Origin: Acidimicrobiia bacterium
GTDB lineage: Bacteria; Actinomycetota; Acidimicrobiia; Spongiisociales; ZC4RG35
Assembly: GCA_035249605.1 (NCBI GenBank)
Contig: DATFGI010000063.1
Location: forward strand, 65,196-129,195
Reading direction: 5' to 3'
DNA: 64,000 bases
The translations under genes were made by a program, and so were the position numbers. Under the pieces are notes generated by a model that had not been told where the DNA came from, did not search any database, and saw only the letters and a program-made list of their open reading frames with translations. Positions 2,936 to 60,346 of this stretch are shown in pieces (positions within the stretch are counted from its first letter, which is position 1; every line of letters begins with the position of its first letter).

Positions 2936-3340
2936 ATGGCGCGGATCGATCAAGTCGCCGGTATTGATCATCGAGGGGCTACCAAGCTGCGCAAGGCGGG
3001 GGTGCGGACCAGCAAGGCCTTGACCGAGTGTGCCGCTACTCGACGGGGTCGGTCTCAGCTGGCCAAGGCGACCGGGCTCAGCCCCAAAGACCTCCAACTC
3101 TGGGTGCATCATGCCGATCTGCTCCGGGTGCGCGGGGTGGGCGCCGAATATGCATCTCTTCTGGTGGAGGCGGGTGTCGACACCCTCCGCGATCTCCGTC
3201 GTCGCAACCCCACCGCGCTCCTGGCCAAGATCATCGGCATGAACGGCGCCCAGAAGGTGGTGGAGCGTCTCCCCACCGAGTCGATGGTGGAGGGTTGGAT
3301 CGCCGGTGCCGGAGATCTCGACCCCACGATCAACGTTTAG
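2936..3340 (+). CDS. DUF4332-like helix-hairpin-helix protein
   Basis: 134 aa with HhH-like segments (LLRVRGVGAEYASLLVEAGVDTLRDL). Resembles DUF4332 family proteins. Confidence 0.65.
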   Translation: MARIDQVAGIDHRGATKLRKAGVRTSKALTECAATRRGRSQLAKATGLSPKDLQLWVHHADLLRVRGVGAEYASLLVEAGVDTLRDLRRRNPTALLAKIIGMNGAQKVVERLPTESMVEGWIAGAGDLDPTINV

Positions 3341-3350
3341 CGTCAGCGCG

Positions 3351-3561
3351 CGGTTGTCCCCTGGCAACGCGTCATTCGAGGGTTCCGGGGCCAGTCACTC
3401 GAAGTCGGTCGAATATAAAGGGGCGTCTGGCGGGTGCGGCAGCTGTCGACCGACCGGCGTCTGTTCGAGTGGAGCCCTCAGGTCGGATGAGAGGGCTGAG
3501 CGGTTGTCCCCGGCTTCGCGTCATGTGAGGTTTCCGGGGCCAGTCACTCGAAGTCGGTCGA
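3351..3561 (+). repeat. About 1.5 tandem units (period 150 bp) of the ~135-bp modular repeat family also found upstream of rpoB
   Basis: Direct repeat CGGTTGTCCCC..GC..CGCGTCAT..GAGG.TTCCGGGGCCAGTCACTCGAAGTCGGTCGA at 3351-3412 and 3501-3561. Between the copies lies block GGGTGCGGCAGCTGTCGACCGACCGGCGTCTGTT (3432-3465) and a hairpin with a GGATGAGAG loop (3475-3503). Both are shared with 56201-56602. Confidence 0.8.
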
Positions 3562-3571
3562 CCATAAACAA

Positions 3572-3597
3572 AGAAGGGGCCCGGACGGGCCCCTTCT
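3572..3597 (-). terminator. Intrinsic terminator hairpin for the HbhA-like gene (possibly bidirectional)
   Basis: AGAAGGGGCCCG / CGGGCCCCTTCT perfect 11-12 bp GC stem. On the minus strand it is followed by TTTGTTTAT, 22 nt after the stop of the 3619-4122 gene. Confidence 0.7.
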
Positions 3598-3618
3598 TCG
3601 CTGTGAGGAGGAGTGAGC

Positions 3619-4122
3619 TCAGGAAGTCTTGGGCTTGGCGGCCGTTGACTTCGCCGAGCTCTTCTTCGCCGCTGTCGACGACTTGGTCGTCTTGGCGACA
3701 GAAGTCTTGGCGGCCGGCTTCTTGGCTGCCGGCTTCTTGGCTGCCGGCTTCTTGGCTGCCGGCTTGGTGGCCGGAGCTGTCGGTGTGACGACAGGCTGAT
3801 CCTCGGCCTTCTCCGGGCGGAACGAGCTCCGCCAGGTGGCGAGCATGTCCTCCAACTGGTCGCGGAGCTTGCTCACCTGCTCCTTGGCCTGGTCGAGATC
3901 GACCTTGTGGGAGATCTCCTCCACGACCTTGCCGTCGCTGATCCGGGAGACGACCTTCTCGCCTTCGGTGGCCCAGTCGTCGATGACCTTGGTAGCAGCC
4001 TCGGAATAACCTCCGGCCTCCTTCGACACCTTGCCCTTCAGTGTGGCGACCCGGTCGCCCACCTTGCGAGCGGCGACCACGGGGGCACCTACTGCGGCAT
4101 ACAGAACGTTCTTCGCCTGCAT
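3619..4122 (-). CDS. HbhA-like (heparin-binding hemagglutinin family) protein with a lysine/alanine/proline-rich tail
   Basis: 167 aa. The coiled-coil N-terminal part (GYSEAATKVIDDWATEGEKVV) resembles mycobacterial HbhA. The C-terminus is KPAAKKPAAKKPAAKKPAAK plus a further K/A/S/T-rich tail. Confidence 0.75.
   Translation of the reverse strand: MQAKNVLYAAVGAPVVAARKVGDRVATLKGKVSKEAGGYSEAATKVIDDWATEGEKVVSRISDGKVVEEISHKVDLDQAKEQVSKLRDQLEDMLATWRSSFRPEKAEDQPVVTPTAPATKPAAKKPAAKKPAAKKPAAKTSVAKTTKSSTAAKKSSAKSTAAKPKTS
3706..3765 (-). repeat. In-frame 15-bp tandem repeat x4 encoding the PAAKK repeats of the HbhA-like tail
   Basis: Plus-strand units CTTGGC(G/T)GCCGGCTT at 3706, 3721, 3736 and 3751. 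The last three are identical. Confidence 0.9.
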
Positions 4123-4555: not shown

Positions 4556-4639
4556 AGCCCCCAAACCCAGGCCCCCCAAACCAAGGCCCCCCAACCCAGG
4601 GTTCGCACCACCAATTCTGGTGGTACCAATCCTGGGTTA
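4556..4639. repeat. REP-like composite palindrome (core type 3) preceded by a triplicated left arm
   Basis: Element CAACCCAGGGTT-CGC-ACCACCA-ATTC-TGGTGGT-ACCAATCCTGGGTTA at 4592-4639. Upstream lie three ~15-nt units CCCCCAAACCCAGG / CCCCCCAAACCAAGG / CCCCCCAACCCAGGG. Confidence 0.75.
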
Positions 4640-4661
4640 CGTGTTCGGGCTCGGTCGGCCG

Positions 4662-5447: not shown

Positions 5448-6458
5448 ATGATCATCGTCATGCACCCGGACGCGACCGCTGAAGAGGTGGCGCGCGTCGT
5501 CGAGACCCTGCGCACGGCCGGCGCCGAGGTGAGTGTCTCCACCGAAGGCGGCCGCACCGTGGTCAACGGCTCGGTCGACTCAGTCCTGATGGGCGAAGCT
5601 CCCTGGCCCGACTTTCCCGGTGTCGAGCGGGTCATGCCGGTGGTGAGGGGCGGGCGCCGGGTGGGCCGTGGTGTTCGGTCGGAGAACACGGTGGTGTCGG
5701 TCGGGTCGGTCACCATCGGTGACGGCTCGCTCGTCGTCATCGCCGGGCCCTGCGCCGTGGAGGATCGGGATCAACTGCTCGCCACTGCCAGGGCGGTGAA
5801 GGACGCGGGCGCGTCGATGCTGAGGGGCGACGCCTTCAAGCCTCGTACCTCTCCCTACTCCTTTCAGGGATTGGGCAAGGCGGGTCTGGAGCTGCTCGCC
5901 GAGGCGAGGGATGACACCGGGCTTCCCTTCGTGGCCGAGGTGCTCGACCCCAGGCAAGTCGAGCTGGTCGGCTCCTACGCCGACATGCTTCGCATTGGCA
6001 CCCGCAACATGTCGAACCACGCCCTCCTCAAGGAAGTCGGCCGTCAGCAGCGGCCGGTCTTGCTCAAGAGGGGCAGGGCGGCCTCGGTCGAGGAGTGGAT
6101 CGACGCCGCCGAATACGTCCACAGCGAGGGCAACCCCAACATCGTTCTGGTGGAGCGGGGGGTCCGAGGCTTCGGCAACTCCGCTCGGAACACCCTCGAT
6201 CTGACTGCGGTGCCGGTGGCGAAGGCCATCAGCCACCTTCCCGTGATGGTCGATCCATCCCACTCCGCCGGTCGCAAGGACATCGTCCCCGCACTGGCCC
6301 GCGCCGCGGTCGCCGTTGGCGCCGACGGCGTGCTGCTCGATGTCCACGTCAACCCCGACACCGCCTTGGTGGACGGGGCTCAGGCGCTTCTTCCAGAGGA
6401 GTTCGATCGACTGATGGTGGAGTTGCGACGGGTTGCCGAGGCGGTGGGGCCGGGCTGA
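5448..6458 (+). CDS. 3-deoxy-7-phosphoheptulonate (DAHP) synthase, type I-beta with an N-terminal regulatory domain
   Basis: 336 aa. Motifs VIAGPCAVE, LRGDAFKPRTSPYSFQGLG, LRIGTRNM and VDPSHSAGR match KDSA/DAHPS I-beta enzymes. A ~75-aa ferredoxin-like N-terminal extension is present. Confidence 0.9.
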   Translation: MIIVMHPDATAEEVARVVETLRTAGAEVSVSTEGGRTVVNGSVDSVLMGEAPWPDFPGVERVMPVVRGGRRVGRGVRSENTVVSVGSVTIGDGSLVVIAGPCAVEDRDQLLATARAVKDAGASMLRGDAFKPRTSPYSFQGLGKAGLELLAEARDDTGLPFVAEVLDPRQVELVGSYADMLRIGTRNMSNHALLKEVGRQQRPVLLKRGRAASVEEWIDAAEYVHSEGNPNIVLVERGVRGFGNSARNTLDLTAVPVAKAISHLPVMVDPSHSAGRKDIVPALARAAVAVGADGVLLDVHVNPDTALVDGAQALLPEEFDRLMVELRRVAEAVGPG

Positions 6459-6464
6459 GCCCGG

Positions 6465-7616
6465 CTACTCCATCAACCCGAGCAGGGCTGCGACTCCGGC
6501 GTGGATCCCGACCGTGATGCTGCCCTCGTCGAGCATGAATCCCGCAGAGTGGAGGTCGTCGCCGCCGCACTCGGTCCCGAGGCGGAGTAGTGCCCCGGGG
6601 GTCACAGTCAGATAGTCGGAGAAGTCCTCGCCGCCCATCGAAGTCTCCGTGCCCACCACCGTGCCCGGCCCCAGGGCGGAGTCGATGGAGCGGCTGGCCA
6701 TCTCCACGAGCCGCTGGTCGTTCACCACCGGGGCGATGCCCTGCCGGTACTCCAGGGAGTAGCCCGCTCCGGTGGGGGCGAGGACGGCATCTATCGCCTT
6801 GTCGACCAACGAGGGGAGGAGGTCCCACAGAGTTGGATCGAGTGTCCGAACCGTTCCCCGGACGACCACCTCGGTGGGGATGACGTTGGCCGCATCACCA
6901 CCGTGAATCGAGCCGAAGACGACCACCAGTGGTGACCGGGCATCGACCGCCTTCCGGATCATCCCGGGCAGCTCAGCGGCCAGTCGCCCCGCGGCGGAAA
7001 CCAGGTCCACTGTCTTGTGGGGTCGGGACGTGTGGCCACCGGGCCCGCTCACGACGATGGAGACGGTGTCACCGCTCGCGGTGATGGGACCGCTCCGCGC
7101 CCCGATGCGTCCGACCGGGAGGCCGGGATCCACATGAAATGCGAGAAGGCCCTGCAGGGCGTCGACGACACCCTCGCTCACCAGGTCTCGGGCACCGCCC
7201 GGGTTGGACTCCTCGGCAGGCTGGAAGATCACACGAACGCCGTCTCGGGGTCCGAGCCGATGGAGGATGACCGCGATCCCGGCGGCGATGGCGGTGTGGG
7301 CGTCGTGCCCGCACGCATGCATCCAACCCTCATTCTCAGAGCGGTGCGGATGGTCGGATGGCTCGGTGATCGGAAGCGCATCGAGGTCGGCGCGGAACCC
7401 GACCCGGGGACTGGCCCCGATGTCGACCCACCCGCCGGTGGCCGACTCTCTGTCCTGGAAGCGGAGACCGTGGCCTTCGAGGAACCGTCGGACCCGGTCC
7501 GTGGTCTCATACTCGTGGTGCGACGGCTCGGGATGTCGGTGGAGGAGACGGCGTAACTCGACCACATGGGGTGTCATCTCCTCGACCAGCCCGGCGAGAT
7601 CTGACGTGGCGGGCAT
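6465..7616 (-). CDS. M20-family amidohydrolase (N-acyl-amino-acid / hippurate hydrolase type)
   Basis: LRRLLHRHPEPSHHEYET, MHACGHDAHT and FQPAEE motifs. I start it at ATG 7616 (MPATSDL...); the track ORF extends 50 codons further upstream without support. Confidence 0.85.
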   Translation of the reverse strand: MPATSDLAGLVEEMTPHVVELRRLLHRHPEPSHHEYETTDRVRRFLEGHGLRFQDRESATGGWVDIGASPRVGFRADLDALPITEPSDHPHRSENEGWMHACGHDAHTAIAAGIAVILHRLGPRDGVRVIFQPAEESNPGGARDLVSEGVVDALQGLLAFHVDPGLPVGRIGARSGPITASGDTVSIVVSGPGGHTSRPHKTVDLVSAAGRLAAELPGMIRKAVDARSPLVVVFGSIHGGDAANVIPTEVVVRGTVRTLDPTLWDLLPSLVDKAIDAVLAPTGAGYSLEYRQGIAPVVNDQRLVEMASRSIDSALGPGTVVGTETSMGGEDFSDYLTVTPGALLRLGTECGGDDLHSAGFMLDEGSITVGIHAGVAALLGLME

Positions 7617-15543: not shown

Positions 15544-15605
15544 TTGGTTGTGGCGGACGGGCAAGGTTAAGCCTGACGCATGGGGTAGCGACAAAGCCGC
15601 ACACG

Positions 15606-15655
15606 CGAACCCAGGGTTCCCAGCGTCGCTCAGCGACGCTACGAACCCTGGGTTG
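15606..15655. repeat. REP-like composite palindrome, core type 1
   Basis: CGAACCCAGGGTTCCCAGCGTCGCTCAGCGACGCTACGAACCCTGGGTTG, identical over 50 bp to 27878-27927. Lies between the divergent greA and selD starts. Confidence 0.9.
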
Positions 15656-15715
15656 GGCGGTGGTCGTCGGCGGCGTCGGGCGGCGGCTGACCGTCGACCG
15701 GCTTAACTTCGCCGG

Positions 15716-19420: not shown

Positions 19421-19425
19421 AACCA

Positions 19426-19534
19426 CGAACCCGGGGTTCCTGGCGCCGGATACGGCGCGACGAACCCGGGGTTGCGCGGCTCCCACGAACCCGGGGTTCC
19501 TGGCGCCGGATATGGCGTGACGAACCCGGGGTTG
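19426..19534. repeat. Two tandem REP-like composite palindromes, core type 2 (period 60 bp)
   Basis: CGAACCCGGGGTT-CCTG-GCGCCG-GATA-CGGCGC-GA-CGAACCCGGGGTTG at 19426-19474. It repeats at 19486-19534 with two C-to-T changes in the core stem. Confidence 0.9.
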
Positions 19535-19569
19535 CGCGGTTGGGCGTCCTGCCGTATACGGTCCTCTCG

Positions 19570-23651: not shown

Positions 23652-23670
23652 GCGGTATGCCCTCAAACCG

Positions 23671-23720
23671 GCAACCCAGGTTTCCCACCACCAAAAACCT
23701 GGGGTAGGAACCCTGGGTTG
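23671..23720. repeat. REP-like composite palindrome, decayed core type 3
   Basis: GCAACCCAGGTTT-CCCACCACCAAAAACCTGGGGTAG-GAACCCTGGGTTG. Lies between the CDF-like gene and ctaC. Confidence 0.7.
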
Positions 23721-23797
23721 GCGTGATCAGGCGGTCGCGCCGGGTGGAGACGGCCAAGTTGGGCGCTACTTCTCAATGTTCGTATGATGCCGTCCCG

Positions 23798-27873: not shown

Positions 27874-27877
27874 TCAG

Positions 27878-27927
27878 CGAACCCAGGGTTCCCAGCGTCG
27901 CTCAGCGACGCTACGAACCCTGGGTTG
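27878..27927. repeat. REP-like composite palindrome, core type 1
   Basis: Identical to 15606-15655. Starts 5 nt after the ctaF stop. Confidence 0.9.
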
Positions 27928-27983
27928 CGCGTTGATCGGCCCTCGTCTTCGCCATCCCGGCCTGCCGTGTTAGAACAGTGGGG

Positions 27984-44991: not shown

Positions 44992-45006
44992 CCCCGTGCC
45001 CATCGC

Positions 45007-45056
45007 GCAACCCAGGGTTCGCAGCGTCGCTCAGCGACGCTACGAACCCTGGGTTC
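45007..45056. repeat. REP-like composite palindrome, core type 1
   Basis: GCAACCCAGGGTTCGCAGCGTCGCTCAGCGACGCTACGAACCCTGGGTTC. Lies between convergent trmL and the M20 dipeptidase gene. Confidence 0.9.
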
Positions 45057-45066
45057 GCTGATCGGG

Positions 45067-46410
45067 TCAACCCCGCTCGGCGAGGAGGCGGAAGGCGATT
45101 GCCTCGCTCAAGGCCGCCTTCTCCAGATCTCCCAGATCCTGGCTCTCGTTGGGGGCGTGATAGGCGCTGGTCGGGTCGCCGCCCCCCACCACCAGGATCG
45201 GAGCGCCCGGGAAGAGCTCTTTGAAGGTGGCGATGAACGGGATGGATCCGCCGGCGCCCATTTCCACCGCCTCGTTGCCGAAGCCCTCGAGAAAAGCCTC
45301 CCGCCACACGTCGACCGCGTAATTGTCCGATCCGAGGATCGTGGCGTCACCGGCCTCCTCGTGGAGGAAGCCCAGACTGGCACCCCAGGGGACGTTGGCC
45401 CGCAGATGATCCTTCAGCGCCTGAAGCGCCGCCTGGGTGTCCTGGCCCGGCGGGATGCGCACGCTCACTTTGGCCCGGGCCACCGGGACGAGCTGGTTGA
45501 TCGCCTCCGAGACCGGTGGGGCGTCGATTGCCAGCACCGACACCGCGGGCCGGGTCCAGAGTCGAGACGGTATCGACCCCTCCCCGATCAACTCGAGACC
45601 ATCGACGGCGCCCGCCAGGGCCCTGGCCATCTCGTCCGGGATCTCCGGCGCTTCGCCGATCTCCTCGGAGACCAGCCCTGAGATGGCGACATTGCCCTGG
45701 TCGTCGTGGAGGGTGGCGAGGAGTCGGGAGAGGGCCATCAGTGCGTCGGGCACGTAGCCGCCGTACTGGCCGGAGTGCACCGCCGAATGAAGTGTGCGCA
45801 GCTCGACCACGACACCGACGACGCCACGCAGCGAAGAGATGTAGGCCGGGGTACCGACCTCCCAGTTGCCACCGTCGCCGATGACGATGACGTCGGGGTG
45901 GAGTATCTCGGAGTGCTTCTCCAGGATCTCGGGGAGCCCGACCGATCCTGCCTCCTCCTCACCCTCCAAGAAGAGCTGGACCCCGACGGGAAGGTTGTCT
46001 CCATGCGCCGCGATGGCACCGAGATGCATCACGATGCCGGCCTTGTCGTCGCTGGCACCCCTCCCGTAGATCCGACCATCCCGCTCGGCGGGCTCGAAGG
46101 CCGGTGTCTGCCATTCGTGGTCGGGGCCGGGGGGCTGCACGTCGTAGTGGGCGTAGAGCAGCAGGGTTGGCGCCCCCTCTGGTGTCGGCAGCTCGGCGAA
46201 CACTGCCGGATGGCCGTTGGACGACTCGAGCAGCCGGGCGTTGTCGAATCCGAGATCATCGAGCATGCCCACGATCTCGCTGCCTGCGTCTCGCACCCCG
46301 GACGGGTCGTAACCTGGGGCACTGACCGACTTCATCCGTATCAGGGTCGCCAGTAGGTCCTTGAGGCGGGGCATGTCGGCCGCGATCGCGGCTCGCAGGT
46401 CGTCGTGCAT
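45067..46410 (-). CDS. M20-family dipeptidase
   Basis: 447 aa. LLLYAHYDVQP, GRGASDDKAG and FLEGEEEAGS metal-site motifs. Confidence 0.87.
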   Translation of the reverse strand: MHDDLRAAIAADMPRLKDLLATLIRMKSVSAPGYDPSGVRDAGSEIVGMLDDLGFDNARLLESSNGHPAVFAELPTPEGAPTLLLYAHYDVQPPGPDHEWQTPAFEPAERDGRIYGRGASDDKAGIVMHLGAIAAHGDNLPVGVQLFLEGEEEAGSVGLPEILEKHSEILHPDVIVIGDGGNWEVGTPAYISSLRGVVGVVVELRTLHSAVHSGQYGGYVPDALMALSRLLATLHDDQGNVAISGLVSEEIGEAPEIPDEMARALAGAVDGLELIGEGSIPSRLWTRPAVSVLAIDAPPVSEAINQLVPVARAKVSVRIPPGQDTQAALQALKDHLRANVPWGASLGFLHEEAGDATILGSDNYAVDVWREAFLEGFGNEAVEMGAGGSIPFIATFKELFPGAPILVVGGGDPTSAYHAPNESQDLGDLEKAALSEAIAFRLLAERG

Positions 46411-54438: not shown

Positions 54439-56109
54439 TCATGGCTCCGGGATCGTGTTCCCGCTGCAGTCGAGGCCGTCACCGGGTCGGTAGAAGGCGA
54501 CGATCGTGTCGACCACCACTCTCCCGTCGGAGAAGGTCCGCTGCCGGTCCGTCGCCGTCTGACGGCACTGGTTTCGGAAGCTGACCCTCTGGTCCAACTC
54601 GACCACCTCCACGTTATGGGTCGAGTACATCGTGACCGTGATCGAGGTGGCGTCGTAGGTCGGCCAGATCAGCACCGGGTAGGCGGTGGCATTGGTCACC
54701 ACCAGGTCCGGCCCAGGCATCGAGAGGGTGGCCTCCCTGCCAAATGGATATCTGGAGAAGTAGACGGAATGGCTCTGGTACTCGTCGAGATCGAGACCGG
54801 CGAAGTAGGCGGCGTTGAACATCGTCGTAGTGAATTGGGAGACCCCACCACCAACCTCGTCAGTCATGTGACCGCCCCGGATGGCGCCGGCGGCCAGGTA
54901 GCCCTTCTCCCGGGTGCGGGGCCCGATGAAGTCGTTGAGGCTCAAGGTCTGGCCGGGGATCAGGTACACGCCGCGGACGGCGTCGGCCATGGTCTGGATG
55001 TTGGTGACACGATTCTCGCAGCAGGCATGTCTCGTGGTGAACTCGGAGACCGGTTCGACGATCTGGGAGCCGTCAGCCCAGGCGAGCCTGGTCGGGTCGT
55101 CCTCAGGTCGGGTTTCGACCTGATAGAGGGCGGAGCCACCGTCGAGCAGACGTTCGGCCACTGCAGCGACCGACTCCTCCGAGCAGCAGACCGGTGCCGC
55201 CGAGCCCTTCTCGACCACGACCACCTCGCCGTCCACGATCTCGAGCACCGGAGGGACGAGCTCGCCGCTCGGGTCGGGAAATGCCGCCTCGATCTCCCCT
55301 TGCAGCTCCTCGAGATCGACCGTCGCCCTCAAGTCGCCGTCCCCGGCTGTCGAGTGGATATGCCGGCGGATCCGCAGGGGCGCGACCGTCGCCTCCTTCC
55401 CGTCGAGAGCCAGGAGCAAACCGTGCTCGGTCTGCTCGTTGAGGCTGCGGGCGAGGGCATCTACCTCTTCATCGCTCACCGTGGGTGGGAGCGCCTCAGT
55501 TCCCGCCACTATTTCCACCGCTCCGGCGGCGACGTCAGACTCGGAGAGAGCATCAATCAACTCGTTGGTGTCGACACCGGTTCCGTCCTCGCCGGGCACG
55601 ACCCGGAGACCCACGCCGGCAGCGTGTTCGAGGGTCGGCTCGACGGGAGATTCGAGCACGAACTCTTCGGCGGCAAGCCGCTGACGTGCAATAGCCGAAT
55701 CGAGGTGAAATCGATCCTCGACCGTGATCTCCCGGAAGGGTGTGCTCGCCCATGCCGCGAACTCGCTGATCGCCCCATCGCCATGTCTCGCCGAGACGGC
55801 CTCTTCCAGGGTCGCCTGGTCGTCGTACTCGAAGCCGATGTCCCCGGCGTCGGTGACGATGCGTCGCCCGCCGATCTCGATGATCACGGGGGTGGCCAGG
55901 AACTCCTGCTCGCGCCGCTCGACAACCGTCGCGACCTCATCGCGGCTCATTCCGGAGACGTCGGAGCCGGCAAAGCTGACGTTGGGAGCAACCTCGGTGC
56001 CTTCGGCCGCGACGTGGTTGGTCCAGGCCACCGCGGAGACGGCCAGGGGTATCAGGAACGAGGGGAAGACCCACACCCAGTTGTTCACTCGGTCCCGATG
56101 ACGCCCCAT
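54439..56109 (-). CDS. VanW-family protein (YoaR-like) with an N-terminal membrane anchor
   Basis: 556 aa. TM anchor, then the VanW core GYLAAGAIRGGHMTDEVGGGVSQFTTTMFNAAYFAGL...YPFGREATL. Confidence 0.87.
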   Translation of the reverse strand: MGRHRDRVNNWVWVFPSFLIPLAVSAVAWTNHVAAEGTEVAPNVSFAGSDVSGMSRDEVATVVERREQEFLATPVIIEIGGRRIVTDAGDIGFEYDDQATLEEAVSARHGDGAISEFAAWASTPFREITVEDRFHLDSAIARQRLAAEEFVLESPVEPTLEHAAGVGLRVVPGEDGTGVDTNELIDALSESDVAAGAVEIVAGTEALPPTVSDEEVDALARSLNEQTEHGLLLALDGKEATVAPLRIRRHIHSTAGDGDLRATVDLEELQGEIEAAFPDPSGELVPPVLEIVDGEVVVVEKGSAAPVCCSEESVAAVAERLLDGGSALYQVETRPEDDPTRLAWADGSQIVEPVSEFTTRHACCENRVTNIQTMADAVRGVYLIPGQTLSLNDFIGPRTREKGYLAAGAIRGGHMTDEVGGGVSQFTTTMFNAAYFAGLDLDEYQSHSVYFSRYPFGREATLSMPGPDLVVTNATAYPVLIWPTYDATSITVTMYSTHNVEVVELDQRVSFRNQCRQTATDRQRTFSDGRVVVDTIVAFYRPGDGLDCSGNTIPEP

Positions 56110-56200
56110 AGACCGGTGGCATGGTAGGAGGAGATCCCCTCGGATTGGGGACAGTCACGCCGACCCCATGGGTCCTGCTCCGTGCTGCGAAGAATGGTGT

Positions 56201-56602
56201 GGGCGCGGCAGCTGTCGGCCGACCGGCGTCTGTTTGGGCCATTGACCCAGGGGGGAGGGGAGAACATCTAGGTGATCCCCGGCGACGGGATGAGAGTGGT
56301 CGCCGGGAGGCAAGGCCCAAGTCGGTGACTGGTTGCGGGCGCGGTAGCTGTCGGCCGACCGGCGTCTGTTTGGGCCGCTGACCCAGAGAGATGGGAGAAT
56401 CCTTAGGTGTGATCCCCGGCTACGGGATGAGAGCGGTCACCGGGCGGCAGGGGCCCAAAGTCGGTGACTGGTTGCGGGCGCGGTAGCTGTCGGCCGACCG
56501 GCGTCTGTTTGGGCCGGTGATCCAGAGGGGATGGGAGAACCGCTAGGTGATCCCCGGCGGCGGGATGAGAGTGGTCGCCGGGAGGCAGGGCCCCAAAGTC
56601 GG
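56201..56602 (+). repeat. Tandem array of three ~136-139-bp non-coding units upstream of rpoB
   Basis: Units at 56201-56336, 56337-56475 and 56476-56602 (3' truncated). Each begins GGGCGCGGYAGCTGTCGGCCGACCGGCGTCTGTTTGGGCC and ends GGCCCAA(A)GTCGGTGACTGGTTGC. The period is not a multiple of 3. Confidence 0.92.
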
Positions 56603-56646
56603 CCGACCATCAAGACTGTCGGCCGACCATGAATACAGCTTCATCC

Positions 56647-56676
56647 TTGACGCGTTTCTCTCCCGTGCGATAGAGT
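56647..56676 (+). promoter_or_regulatory. Candidate rpoB promoter
   Basis: TTGACG (56647-56652), 18-nt spacer, TAGAGT (56671-56676). About 160 nt upstream of the rpoB start. Confidence 0.4.
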
Positions 56677-56756
56677 GGGCGGCGAGCAGTGATGCTCCGA
56701 GACGTCCTGACTGGCGTGGCCGGATGGACCTCTCTACAACTGAGTTTTCCTTTTGA

Positions 56757-56792
56757 GGACATGTTCCCGCCTGTGCTAACATGTCCTTTCTT
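56757..56792 (+). promoter_or_regulatory. Leader hairpin followed by a T-rich run (possible attenuator) upstream of rpoB
   Basis: GGACATGTT (56757-56765), 12-nt loop, AACATGTCC (56778-56786), then TTTCTT. Ends about 42 nt before the rpoB TTG start. Confidence 0.4.
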
Positions 56793-56833
56793 GCGTTACC
56801 CGGTTACTATCCACCACCTCAAGGAGGCACCCC

Positions 56834-60202
<3,369 letters not shown>

Positions 60203-60217
60203 ATTCCGATCGAAATA

Positions 60218-60267
60218 CGAACCCTGGGTTGCCAGCGTCGCTCAGCGACGCTGTGAACCCTGGGTTG
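60218..60267. repeat. REP-like composite palindrome, core type 1, inside the rpoB-rpoC spacer
   Basis: CGAACCCTGGGTTGCCAGCGTCGCTCAGCGACGCTGTGAACCCTGGGTTG. Starts 16 nt after the rpoB stop. Confidence 0.9.
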
Positions 60268-60346
60268 GCGAAAAGTGCGAGTGATCCCCATAAGGAGATG
60301 AGGGCGGACGAGAGGAGACTCTCGCCCAAAGTCCGCCGATAACAAC

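Follow-up and report, generated by a model that had tools for sequence, protein, structure and literature searches.

A tandem hairpin array upstream of rpoB as a probable member of an interspersed repeat family in Acidimicrobiia

What is a tandem array of structured, non-coding units doing directly upstream of the promoter of rpoB? The Acidimicrobiia, common in soil, freshwater and marine samples but mostly uncultured, have a largely uncharted non-coding genome content. The window analyzed here, a 64,000-nucleotide stretch of one such genome, carries the array in the spacer that separates a VanW-like gene from rpoB. A first-pass annotation of the bare sequence had described three units of about 135 bp, non-coding and modular, as a candidate regulator or small RNA of the two flanking genes, with a plain miniature inverted-repeat transposon (MITE) as the competing reading. 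Both the existence of the array and its non-coding, modular character are borne out: Tandem Repeats Finder (TRF) reports a single array at 56201-56602 (period 139, 2.9 copies, 87% matches, score 601), a covariance model, R1, recovers each of the three units, and Pfam agrees with the two genes on either side of a 724-bp gap (Table 1).

Each unit follows the same order: a conserved 5' box, an outer helix strand (P0), a 9-nt bulge, an inner helix strand (P1), a variable interior, the partner strand P1', the P0 3' strand and a CAT tail. The sequence-conserved base of the unit thus consists of GGYGCGGYAGCT, the P0 5' strand, the bulge CGGCGTCTG, P1 with P1', the P0 3' strand and CAT, and it closes a variable interior of ~75 nt. 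P0 is a 10-bp helix in which GTCGGCCGAC of the 5' box pairs with GTCGGCCGAC of the 3' box. P1 is an 8-bp helix that opens with two T-A pairs and otherwise varies in sequence from locus to locus. The bulge between them is conserved, and the unit length of 131-137 nt is tightly conserved as well, with short forms of 106-116 nt.

Table 1. Coordinates of the features discussed, numbered from the first letter of the window
Feature	Position	Strand	Basis and remarks
VanW-like gene	54439-56109	minus	Pfam
rpoB	56834-60202	plus	Pfam
Unit 1	56202-56332	+	Model R1 80 bits, E 4e-17; TRF; sequence
Unit 2	56338-56471	+	Model R1 97 bits, E 5e-21; TRF; degenerate 3' box as in unit 1
Unit 3, canonical full-length	56477-56610	+	Model R1 116.8 bits, E 1.5e-25; helix columns from alignments A2 and A3
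Unit 3, 5' flank	56477-56488	+	
Unit 3, P0 5' strand	56489-56498	+	
Unit 3, bulge CGGCGTCTG	56499-56507	+	
Unit 3, P1 5' strand	56508-56515	+	
Unit 3, variable interior	56516-56589	+	
Unit 3, P1 3' strand	56590-56597	+	
Unit 3, P0 3' strand	56598-56607	+	
Unit 3, CAT tail	56608-56610	+	
'Solo' box GTCGGCCGACCAT	56618-56630	+	Exact match; 7 nt past unit 3
Far locus, partial unit (3' half only)	3341-3416	+	Direct-repeat family D15; weak R1 match 3305-3416, 14.1 bits
Far locus, full-length diverged copy	3433-3565	+	Model R1 120.9 bits, E 1.7e-26; sequence

Unit 1 retains an intact 5' box and P0 5' strand and ends in a degenerate 3' box (GTCGGTGAC), after which comes the linker TGGTTGC (56330-56336). 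Unit 3 had been taken for 3' truncated; it is instead the canonical complete unit, ending in AAGTCGGCCGACCAT, and it is units 1 and 2 that carry the degenerate 3' boxes (GTCGGTGAC plus TGGTTGC). The doublet of GTCGGCCGACC at 56598 and 56618 is exact. Its second member, the 'solo' box, is a P0 box and tail with the interior absent. Comparable 3' box doublets follow the arrays of three other loci in a comparison of 3' flanks (L010, L035, L032), and the 'solo' box probably represents a collapsed fourth unit. At the far end of the window, the diverged copy that had already been noticed does exist, between a DUF4332 gene (end 3340) and a bidirectional terminator hairpin at ~3571-3600. It is not a single copy, however: a partial unit, 87% identical to 3508-3568, lies directly 5' of it, making a tandem of about 1.5 units. 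The full far copy has a compensated A/T change in P0, and its P1 is TTCGAGTG/CACTCGAA.

Pairing of the unit base is supported by compensatory changes, judged over about 40 copies. For P0 and P1 together, 96.6% of cells are paired, and 83 double-change cells are counted versus 20.6 in shuffles (0/500 shuffles reach the observed value); this support collapses once the partners are slid. Variant P0 boxes are not palindromic themselves, yet they are reverse complements of the partner box ~110 nt away: A..T in the far copy, L003, L010 and L016, C..G in L015a, and GCGGGCCGAC/GTCGGCCCGC in L015b. No copy was seen to lose the complementary segments. As judged from these abundant compensatory changes, the bulged hairpin is under selection for secondary structure, as had been proposed. 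The earlier pairing scheme fares less well in its details. Its blocks A and B, its pairing of TTTGGGCC with GGCCCAA (56233-56240 with 56314-56320) and its CCCGGCGAC...GTCGCCGGG hairpin are all read in the sequence as described, but it missed the P0 outer helix, and its inner GGGA...TCCC pairing and hairpin are unit-specific rather than general. Averaged pairing probabilities, a covariation scan of all column pairs and fixed-register diagonals gave no family-wide inner helix, and the three helix searches left only a near-invariant TCC/GGA contact of 2-3 bp in the interior. Likewise, no covarying partner columns were found that would place the bulge or the 5' flank in a pseudoknot. A local 5' hairpin, TGTCGG-CCGA-CCGGCG plus TCTGTTTG, had been flagged as terminator-like; it was rejected as a selected structure, since the substitutions that compensate for a changed P0 5' strand fall in the distant 3' box, and CCGGCG stays invariant.

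The element proved to be widespread. The exact 5'-box pattern occurs at 11 Acidimicrobiia/Actinomycetota loci in species-representative genomes and at 15 true metagenome loci, among which model R1 finds 54 true copies or fragments (56 model rows minus the coding false positive L030). The covariance model overall returns >50 copies at about 30 Acidimicrobiia loci from metagenome-assembled genomes (MAGs) and metagenomes, many of them tandem; two- or three-unit arrays are present at L006, L010, L022, L026, L027, L029, L032, L033, L037 and L044. Chance matches were discarded (L002, L004, L009, L011-L014, L017, L030, L036), several of them in coding sequence with an LSADRRL-type peptide. The first-pass annotation had recognized no known RNA family, and this holds: Rfam gave no gathering-score match for the window and four related loci, and on 56000-56900, at E up to 10, only a chance sR44 match of 11 bits. 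Searches of plasmids, phages and viral contigs gave no matches, a full-text literature search for GTCGGCCGAC returned unrelated papers only, and the element is not described in REP surveys. ARAGORN finds no tRNA or tmRNA in the window, and the tRNA-like look of the 5' flank, GGCGCGG-TA-GCTG as acceptor plus D arm, is superficial and was dropped because the would-be D stem does not pair. The family of interspersed, often tandem hairpin repeats across Acidimicrobiia is thus apparently undescribed.

Copies of the element occupy many kinds of intergenic and intercistronic site and face either way. Of the 32 arrays with a callable 5' neighbor, 25 lie just 3' of a co-oriented gene, and by context 11 are convergent, 7 unidirectional sense, 4 unidirectional antisense and 3 divergent. 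Among intercistronic copies, those in rplN-rplX and nuoK-nuoL are antisense and those in rpoB-rpoC sense; further sites are the spacer after rpoC, both dnaE2 flanks, trxA and FTHFS. The element precedes a terminator in the far copy of the window and in L010/L037, and follows it in L007. No consensus promoter was found in or upstream of the units. The density of ~1 array per 35-40 kb, like any orientation bias, is extrapolated from loci found via the element itself. Apparent enrichment near genes for RNA polymerase, ribosomal proteins, EF-G and ATP synthase may be an ascertainment effect, or may hint at a function more specific than that of a generic repeat. An enzyme tied to the inverted pair of L008 was also considered and set aside: the pair brackets an ordinary AMP-binding enzyme gene.

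Comparison of orthologous sites reveals which parts of the unit are retained. In the flanking genes, identity at four-fold synonymous sites is 45-61% for 9/10 pairs, and the closest pair reaches 75%. For most orthologous pairs the corresponding value is 85-100% over the 5' flank, P0, the bulge, the locus-specific P1 and the 3' box, with a few of these segments dropping to about 67-75% where divergence is greatest; over the interior it is 41-71%. By this measure, purifying selection acts on the stem base, at a distance where synonymous sites are close to saturation.

On this evidence we favor, with moderate confidence, the view that one member of an Acidimicrobiia-wide interspersed hairpin repeat family, REP/BIME-, ERIC- or MIRU-like in character, has been amplified locally in tandem to give the array. 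The palindromic P0 box, standing at both unit ends, would serve as a direct and an inverted repeat at once, and slippage or unequal exchange would therefore be favored; such events would yield tandem arrays, half-units, solo boxes and copy-number differences. Copies would settle where intergenic space tolerates them: past the 3' ends of genes, in intercistronic gaps, in the stretch from a terminator to the following promoter and, as an occasional case seen in the window, between divergent promoters. What is selected may be hairpin formation, in RNA copied from whichever of the two strands is expressed, in DNA that is single-stranded or cruciform, or in both, with the invariant unpaired boxes read by a putative host factor. 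The effect would be generic: the element might, e.g., punctuate mRNA or affect its stability, or act as a topological site or a site of protein binding.

A stronger claim, which we put forward tentatively as a real but lesser possibility, is that the element is a vertically maintained functional module and not selfish. Its bulged stem base, comprising two boxes and two helices, would be read by a putative conserved host factor at the edges of, or within, the operons with the heaviest transcription (rpoBC, rpsL-fusA, spc, nuo, atp). Such a module could be an RNA-processing or stability signal in either orientation, or a cruciform topological or protein-binding site near strong promoters, and tandem copy number would tune its strength.

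A multi-copy structured RNA or RNA module, acting in trans or in cis, is somewhat unlikely. The conserved bulged stem base would serve for binding or processing, with, e.g., an RNase III-type enzyme or a dedicated RNA-binding protein as its partner; the variable interior would either be tolerated or confer specificity, and the tandem arrays would give polycistronic precursors. The strong covariation of two helices, the class-wide invariant unpaired boxes and the purifying selection on the base at orthologous sites would all suit such an RNA, and most copies are in places that would be transcribed, namely 3' UTRs and intercistronic spacers. The asymmetry of near-pairs points the same way: G.U-type cells outnumber A.C-type cells by 15 to 4 in the element orientation, and the trend is reversed in the few copies that run antisense to their operon (1 G.U to 2 A.C, versus 14 to 2 for the rest; one-sided Fisher p ~0.1). 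This bias could, however, reflect transcription-linked C-to-T mutation rather than selection. The antisense copies in the spc and nuo operons keep the asymmetric boxes perfectly; they count against an RNA reader because a sequence-specific one could not see the boxes there. No known transcript covers those copies that follow a terminator and precede the next promoter, or those that, as in the window, separate divergent genes. Covariation is found for P0 and P1 and not for any interior helix; the interior has no conserved structure. There is no conserved promoter upstream of the 5' box, where flanks are unrelated, nor a consistent position or orientation (7 sense versus 4 antisense in unidirectional contexts; before or after terminators).

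Mobility is the next alternative. As a plain MITE, the element would be a selfish, non-autonomous cut-and-paste transposon without host function, with P0 as 10-bp terminal inverted repeats, mobilized in trans by an insertion-sequence transposase. The inverted termini expected of a MITE are present, since P0 is a 10-bp inverted repeat at both ends; the target-site duplications are not, with none in the flanks of 35 arrays. In keeping with a MITE, multiple copies are scattered through intergenic DNA in both orientations, some of them truncated, and orthologous spacers differ in whether they hold one. On the other hand, transposase, integrase and reverse transcriptase families are represented by 0/137 ORFs within 3 kb of the arrays, the Y1 transposase included, and about 300 kb of loci contained no insertion sequence with matching ends that could be its parent. 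The copies within one genome all differ in P1, each locus having its own, and no near-identical dispersed copies were seen. Dispersal by transposition therefore lacks support from a mobilizing enzyme, from target-site duplications or from near-identical copies. Moreover, orthologous copies are retained with a base conserved far above the synonymous rate, which is not expected of decaying selfish insertions, and the frequent head-to-tail tandems are rare for cut-and-paste MITEs. A plain MITE is accordingly quite improbable. The outcome lies between the two options of the first-pass annotation, functional RNA or MITE: a dispersed repeat family whose stem base is nonetheless under purifying selection.

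A role specific to rpoB and/or the divergent VanW-like gene, as a cis-regulatory element or sRNA gene, was the initial proposal and is very improbable, given the many unrelated sites in both orientations (dnaE2, nuo, spc, trxA, FTHFS and other loci), the lack of a promoter in the array and its absence from the orthologous spacer of a relative. The array does stand directly upstream of the rpoB promoter, and in three lineages (window, L044, L033) a distance of 5-39 nt separates the end of a copy from the -35 of this promoter, so a promoter-proximal role is conceivable; copies in the rpoBC region are also all in sense orientation. P1 differs, however, between the three rpoB-upstream copies, and the rpoBC spacers are variously occupied: L043 carries the element in rpoB-rpoC alone, L044 in all three spacers, and L033 only upstream of rpoB. 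In L041, L043 and L025 the element is absent upstream of rpoB while promoter and leader are almost identical. L041, whose VanW protein is 73% identical, keeps this same promoter and leader in a VanW-rpoB spacer of 321 bp, i.e., 724 minus the array; upstream of the promoter, the flanks of L041 and the window have diverged beyond alignment, and exact insertion boundaries are therefore not definable. Unit number changes from 1 to 3 even within near-identical sequences: a contig with an identical VanW protein has a single chimeric unit as opposed to the three of the window. At rpoB, the array would do no more than space or insulate the promoter from its upstream side, and rpoB-specific control would reside downstream of the array, in the conserved promoter and leader hairpin, which is where it should be sought.

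The remaining reading, a double-stranded DNA protein-binding array with GTCGGCCGAC and the 33-bp 5' block as operator-like sites and the hairpin irrelevant, is the least probable of all: a perfect 10-bp palindrome about every 135 bp, a doublet 20 bp apart beside a promoter and the fit of an orientation-independent function to the mixed orientations speak for it, but the compensated non-palindromic P0 variants and a fully variable P1 that stays complementary indicate selection on pairing and not on independent binding sites.

A constrained, class-wide repeat inside core operons (rpoB-rpoC, rplN-rplX, nuoK-nuoL) provides a test case for whether REP-like repeats are host-beneficial or selfish, and its invariant 33-nt 5' box can be used as a probe for the putative host factor. 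The repeat interrupts short-read assemblies at predictable positions, with breaks in 11 contigs at the rpoB site and in 6 at the far site, so intergenic lengths in MAGs near the element need caution, because the element can also collapse tandem copies.

Among known systems, the closest terms of comparison are the palindromic repeats tagged GTAG or CGTC, REP/BIME and REPINs (Di Nocera et al. 2013, PMC3733652). CGTC REPs have a stem of 8-9 bp starting with A-T pairs, a loop of 4-5 nt and a CCA tail, with no associated transposase gene reported, whereas GTAG REPs are linked to a RAYT (Y1 transposase) gene flanked by repeats (PMC3733652); Acidimicrobiia are not in the text of that survey. The element shares with REP/BIME its dispersal as intergenic hairpins, which mostly sit just 3' of genes or separate convergent or unidirectional neighbors, may point either way and often cluster. 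Both tags occur unpaired in its 5' box, GYAG 2 nt before P0 and CGTC 2 nt before P1, in columns that are near-invariant apart from T/C variation at the GTAG position. Like a CGTC REP, it has an 8-bp stem (P1) that opens with two A-T pairs, an end in CCA(T), and no transposase gene among the 137 neighboring ORFs. It differs in that CCA(T) follows P0 and not P1, and in that P1 encloses ~75 nt instead of 4-5. In general, REPs measure 20-40 nt with loops of 2-20 nt, whereas the element is ~135 nt long, too large for the size class, has a variable domain of ~75 nt for a 'loop' and stacks two helices split by a conserved 9-nt bulge; its arrays run head-to-tail rather than as head-to-head dimers. The class-wide invariant unpaired boxes and the unit length of 131-137 nt go beyond what is seen in simple REP-like hairpins and would also fit a dedicated RNA or protein-binding function.

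Integron attC sites are built from an outer conserved stem, an unpaired spacer or bulge, a second stem and a variable terminal structure; they reach about 140 nt and conserve structure over sequence. The element shares this layout of outer stem, bulge, second stem and variable interior. Its boxes, GTCGGCCGAC, are without the RYYYAAC/GTTRRRY core sites, however, its units abut with no gene cassettes between them, no integrase is found among its neighbors, and it is dispersed through core operons rather than gathered in one cassette array.

ERIC/IRU elements of enterobacteria and Correia/NEMIS elements of Neisseria are imperfect palindromes of ~100-150 bp that lie at transcribed intergenic or intercistronic sites in both orientations, form long RNA hairpins able to affect mRNA processing or stability, and are patchy between related strains. 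Size, intergenic and intercistronic sites, both orientations and patchy presence are common to the element and to these families. Their sequences are unrelated, though, and they are near-complete palindromes, whereas here only the base pairs and the interior does not fold back. Correia elements have TA target-site duplications, which the element lacks, and tandem arrays are untypical of both families. Head-to-tail organization is instead shared with the mycobacterial MIRUs, repeats of 46-101 bp that form VNTR loci and often contain short reading frames coupled to the flanking genes. MIRUs are not defined by a covarying hairpin and have no sequence similarity to the element, but the two are alike in being actinobacterial and intercistronic, and in differing in unit number among close relatives, as in the three-unit and one-unit forms described here.

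The tandem array that the first-pass annotation had described between the VanW-family gene and rpoB is real: in this 724-bp gap, Tandem Repeats Finder returned one strong array (56201–56602; period 139, 2.9 copies, 87% matches, score 601), and the sequence bears out the described blocks, together with the TTTGGGCC/GGCCCAA pairing, the inner hairpin and the GTCGGCCGACCAT doublet (at 56598 and 56618). The diverged copy reported near 3432–3561 is genuine as well, and another 3' half-unit (direct-repeat family D15) lies before it. A covariance model built on two helices, P0 and P1, recovered the four window units, this far copy among them, at 80–121 bits; beyond these units and the half-unit, the scan of 64 kb yielded nothing else credible. 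The third unit, previously called 3'-truncated, is the canonical complete unit; in units 1 and 2 the 3' box is degenerate. Convergent with the far copy is a gene (3619–4122, minus) in which a 15-nt tandem repeat at 3690–3765 encodes a Lys/Ala-rich tail, and whose product has a weak HC2/histone-H1-like Pfam match.

A search with the block-B core (CTGTCGNCCGACCGGCGTCTG) in one genome per species gave 19 loci, 11 of them true copies, all from Acidimicrobiia or Actinomycetota MAGs, and 15 further true loci came from metagenomes. Pattern-only matches in L012, L013, L030 and similar loci were rejected as chance: there, a 21–23-nt 5'-box pattern lies in proteobacterial oxidoreductase-type coding sequence and encodes the peptide LSADRRL, a recurrent false positive of such searches. 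The copies share a common plan: a 5' flank GGYGCGGYAGCT followed by GTCGNCCGAC, CGGCGTCTG and TTYGnnnn; a variable interior of ~75 nt with the islands GATC, GAGGGTGGA, CCCC and GGAGGCA; and a 3' end composed of nnnnCRAA, GTCGGN'CGAC and CAT. The two palindromic boxes form the outer helix, P0, because their variable bases change together, A with T in the far copy, L003, L010 and L016, C with G in L015a, and GCGGGCCGAC with GTCGGCCCGC in L015b. The TTTGGGCC/GGCCCAA pairing stands as the second, inner helix, P1; P0 had been overlooked, and the inner pairings, present in the window units, are local to them, with no conserved interior helix among the aligned copies. Over 42 aligned copies, 96.6% of P0 and P1 cells are paired, and double-sided changes occur in 83 cells versus 20.6 in shuffles, the observed value being reached by none of 500; sliding the partner columns collapses this support. 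The P0/P1 covariation thus supports and extends the earlier reading of selection on secondary structure.

These copies make up a dispersed family and not a device of rpoB. It is common for two or three units to stand in tandem (L006, L010, L022, L026, L027, L029, L032, L033, L037, L044). Of the 38 arrays in the context table, which include the coding-sequence false positive L030, 32 have a callable 5' neighbour, and for 25 of these a co-oriented gene lies shortly upstream. Convergent contexts are commonest (n = 11), unidirectional ones comprise 7 sense and 4 antisense, and divergent ones, as at rpoB, are rare (n = 3); copies in the spc and nuo operons are antisense to the operon and the rpoBC copies sense. 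A terminator lies 3' of the element in the far copy and in L010/L037, and a canonical one 5' of it in L007. No consensus promoter was found in or before the units, the rpoB promoter at 56647–56676 being the only one in the region, and neither an Rfam family nor a tRNA was found for the element. In the nuoK–nuoL spacer, the unit is long-form in L003 (134 nt, 6821–6954) and short-form in another species, L016 (~108 nt, 6202–6309), which probably represents this spacer too; if these sites are equivalent, as judged from similar 3' flanks, the interior can be largely lost with the base kept.

Positions and contexts of the element and of neighbouring features (L numbers denote related loci)
Feature	Locus and position	Strand	Remarks
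VanW-family gene	window 54439–56109	minus	Pfam
rpoB	window 56834–60202	plus	Pfam
rpoBC sites	window		upstream of rpoB: 3 units + solo box; rpoB–rpoC: none (different palindrome)
rpoBC sites	L041 (VanW 73% identical)		upstream: none, spacer 321 bp
rpoBC sites	L043 (VanW 61%)		upstream: none; rpoB–rpoC: 1 copy + partial; after rpoC: none detected
rpoBC sites	L025		upstream: none; rpoB–rpoC: 1 copy + partial; after rpoC: 1 copy
rpoBC sites	L044 (VanW 60%)		upstream: 2 units + partial; rpoB–rpoC: 2 units; after rpoC: ~1.5 units
rpoBC sites	L033		upstream: 1 unit; rpoB–rpoC: none (66-nt spacer)
Arrays, rpoB–rpoC spacer	L043, L044, L025
Arrays, downstream of rpoC	L006/L044, L007, L020, L025
Array, after DUF4332	window
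Arrays, both flanks of dnaE2	L015, L028
Arrays, rplN–rplX spacer	L023, L024, L031/L034
Arrays, nuoK–nuoL spacer	L003, probably L016
Arrays, other			adjoining trxA, FTHFS, obg and others
7–8-nt tandem repeats	L041 ~985–1045; L021 directly 5' of element at 6940; L016 ~6310–6370; L044 9230–9260
Post-rpoC promoter-like block	L007 3678–3720; L020 3657–3700; L025 upstream of 75; L044 ~660–716
Nested-palindrome repeats	window 15605–15666, 27877–27938, 45006–45067, 60217–60278
Related to nested-palindrome repeats	window 4588–4644, 19423–19539, 23670–23731		19423–19539: tandem pair

Occupancy of the rpoBC spacers is patchy. The window spacer less its array equals the L041 spacer in length, and the TTGACG...GATAGAGT promoter and leader are shared by both; promoter and leader are independent of the array. 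The rpoB-specific role proposed earlier is not supported, given the many unrelated contexts and the retention of promoter and leader in array-less L041. The L044 array and the L033 unit end 26 nt and 5 nt, respectively, upstream of the same promoter, and the P1 stems of the three rpoB-upstream copies differ (TTTGGGCC, TTCGAGCG, TTTGGACGG).

Window positions 56647–56833 comprise the conserved rpoB promoter (TTGACG-18 nt-TAGAGT) and, after it, a ~150-nt leader with a hairpin, GGACATGTT...AACATGTCC, at ~56758–56787; TTTCTTGCGTTA, a ribosome-binding site (AAGGAGG) and the TTG start come next. This region is alignable in five lineages, with one stem position being T-A, T.G or C-G, so that the changes form a compensatory series. 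The hairpin resembles an attenuator or terminator, had no Rfam match, and is kept whether the upstream array is present or absent. Tandem repeats of 7–8 nt (GTACTCG, GAGTATC and GGTATCA types) fill several relatives' intergenic spacers, including the array-less L041 spacer. A second, unrelated family of nested palindromes (AACCCAGGGTT...AGCGTCGCTCAGCGACGCT...AACCCTGGGTT) has one copy in the rpoB–rpoC spacer, 15 nt past the rpoB stop, a position occupied by the hairpin element in L043, L044 and L025. Downstream of rpoC, four lineages have a conserved promoter-like block (GGTCGTTGACTT, 17 nt, TAACTT) lying 6–10 nt past the element; the ~1 kb from there to rpsL contains solely an unannotated ORF of 206–233 aa (L043 997–1617, L044 1–637), with no Pfam match.

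A contig with an identical VanW protein (L001, 2775–2908) has a single chimeric unit joining the 5' part of unit 1 to the 3' end of unit 3, a pattern due either to assembly collapse or to genuine variation in copy number. Breaks fall ~20 nt into unit 1 in eleven other contigs and within the far locus in six; L038–L040 (at position 1) and L047–L052 (at their ends) are among the contigs concerned. Short-read assemblies reduce three units to one chimera or stop inside the repeat, and because of this, MAG unit counts and intergenic lengths near the element are unreliable.

Judged by duplications, the element does not qualify as a MITE: no target-site duplications were found at the array flanks. 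Transposases, integrases and reverse transcriptases number zero among 137 neighbouring ORFs, and no plasmid, phage or viral contig matched the element. For same-site copies from different species (ten pairs), identity along the element was compared with four-fold synonymous identity of flanking genes, which is near saturation in nine pairs (45–61%) and 75% in the closest, L020–L025. The interior is roughly neutral (41–71% identity); the 5' flank, P0, bulge, locus-specific P1 and 3' box are 85–100% identical in most pairs, a few base segments dropping to ~67–75% in the most divergent. P1 differs from locus to locus, so copies elsewhere cannot preserve it by conversion. It follows that the base is under purifying selection, which speaks against plain, decaying selfish DNA.

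Cells of G.U type outnumber those of A.C type 15 to 4 in element orientation; the ratio is 1:2 in operon-antisense copies versus 14:2 in the rest (one-sided Fisher p ~0.1, not significant). This pattern is consistent with pairing being selected in the transcribed strand, whichever that is, and a transcription-linked C-to-T mutation bias would yield the same. Antisense copies keep the asymmetric boxes perfectly, and since these would be invisible to a reader of mRNA sequence, their retention suggests that recognition takes place on DNA, or that the boxes are a legacy of the way copies are made. The best-supported reading is a generic hairpin-forming intergenic module, its base read by a putative protein, that would be amplified locally via exchange between its palindromic end boxes.

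Among known systems, tagged REPs as defined by Di Nocera et al. 2013 (PMC3733652) share with the element the unpaired tetranucleotides GTAG and CGTC, a stem of 8 bp that opens with two A-T pairs, the CCA tail and the same genomic distribution; CGTC REPs also share the lack of a transposase. They differ in size, in loop length and in lacking the element's two-helix bulged architecture. In size and placement the element recalls ERIC and Correia elements, its tandem copy-number variation is like that of MIRUs, and its architecture resembles that of attC sites, although it is a member of none of these; it is filed as a new variant within the interspersed hairpin-repeat class.
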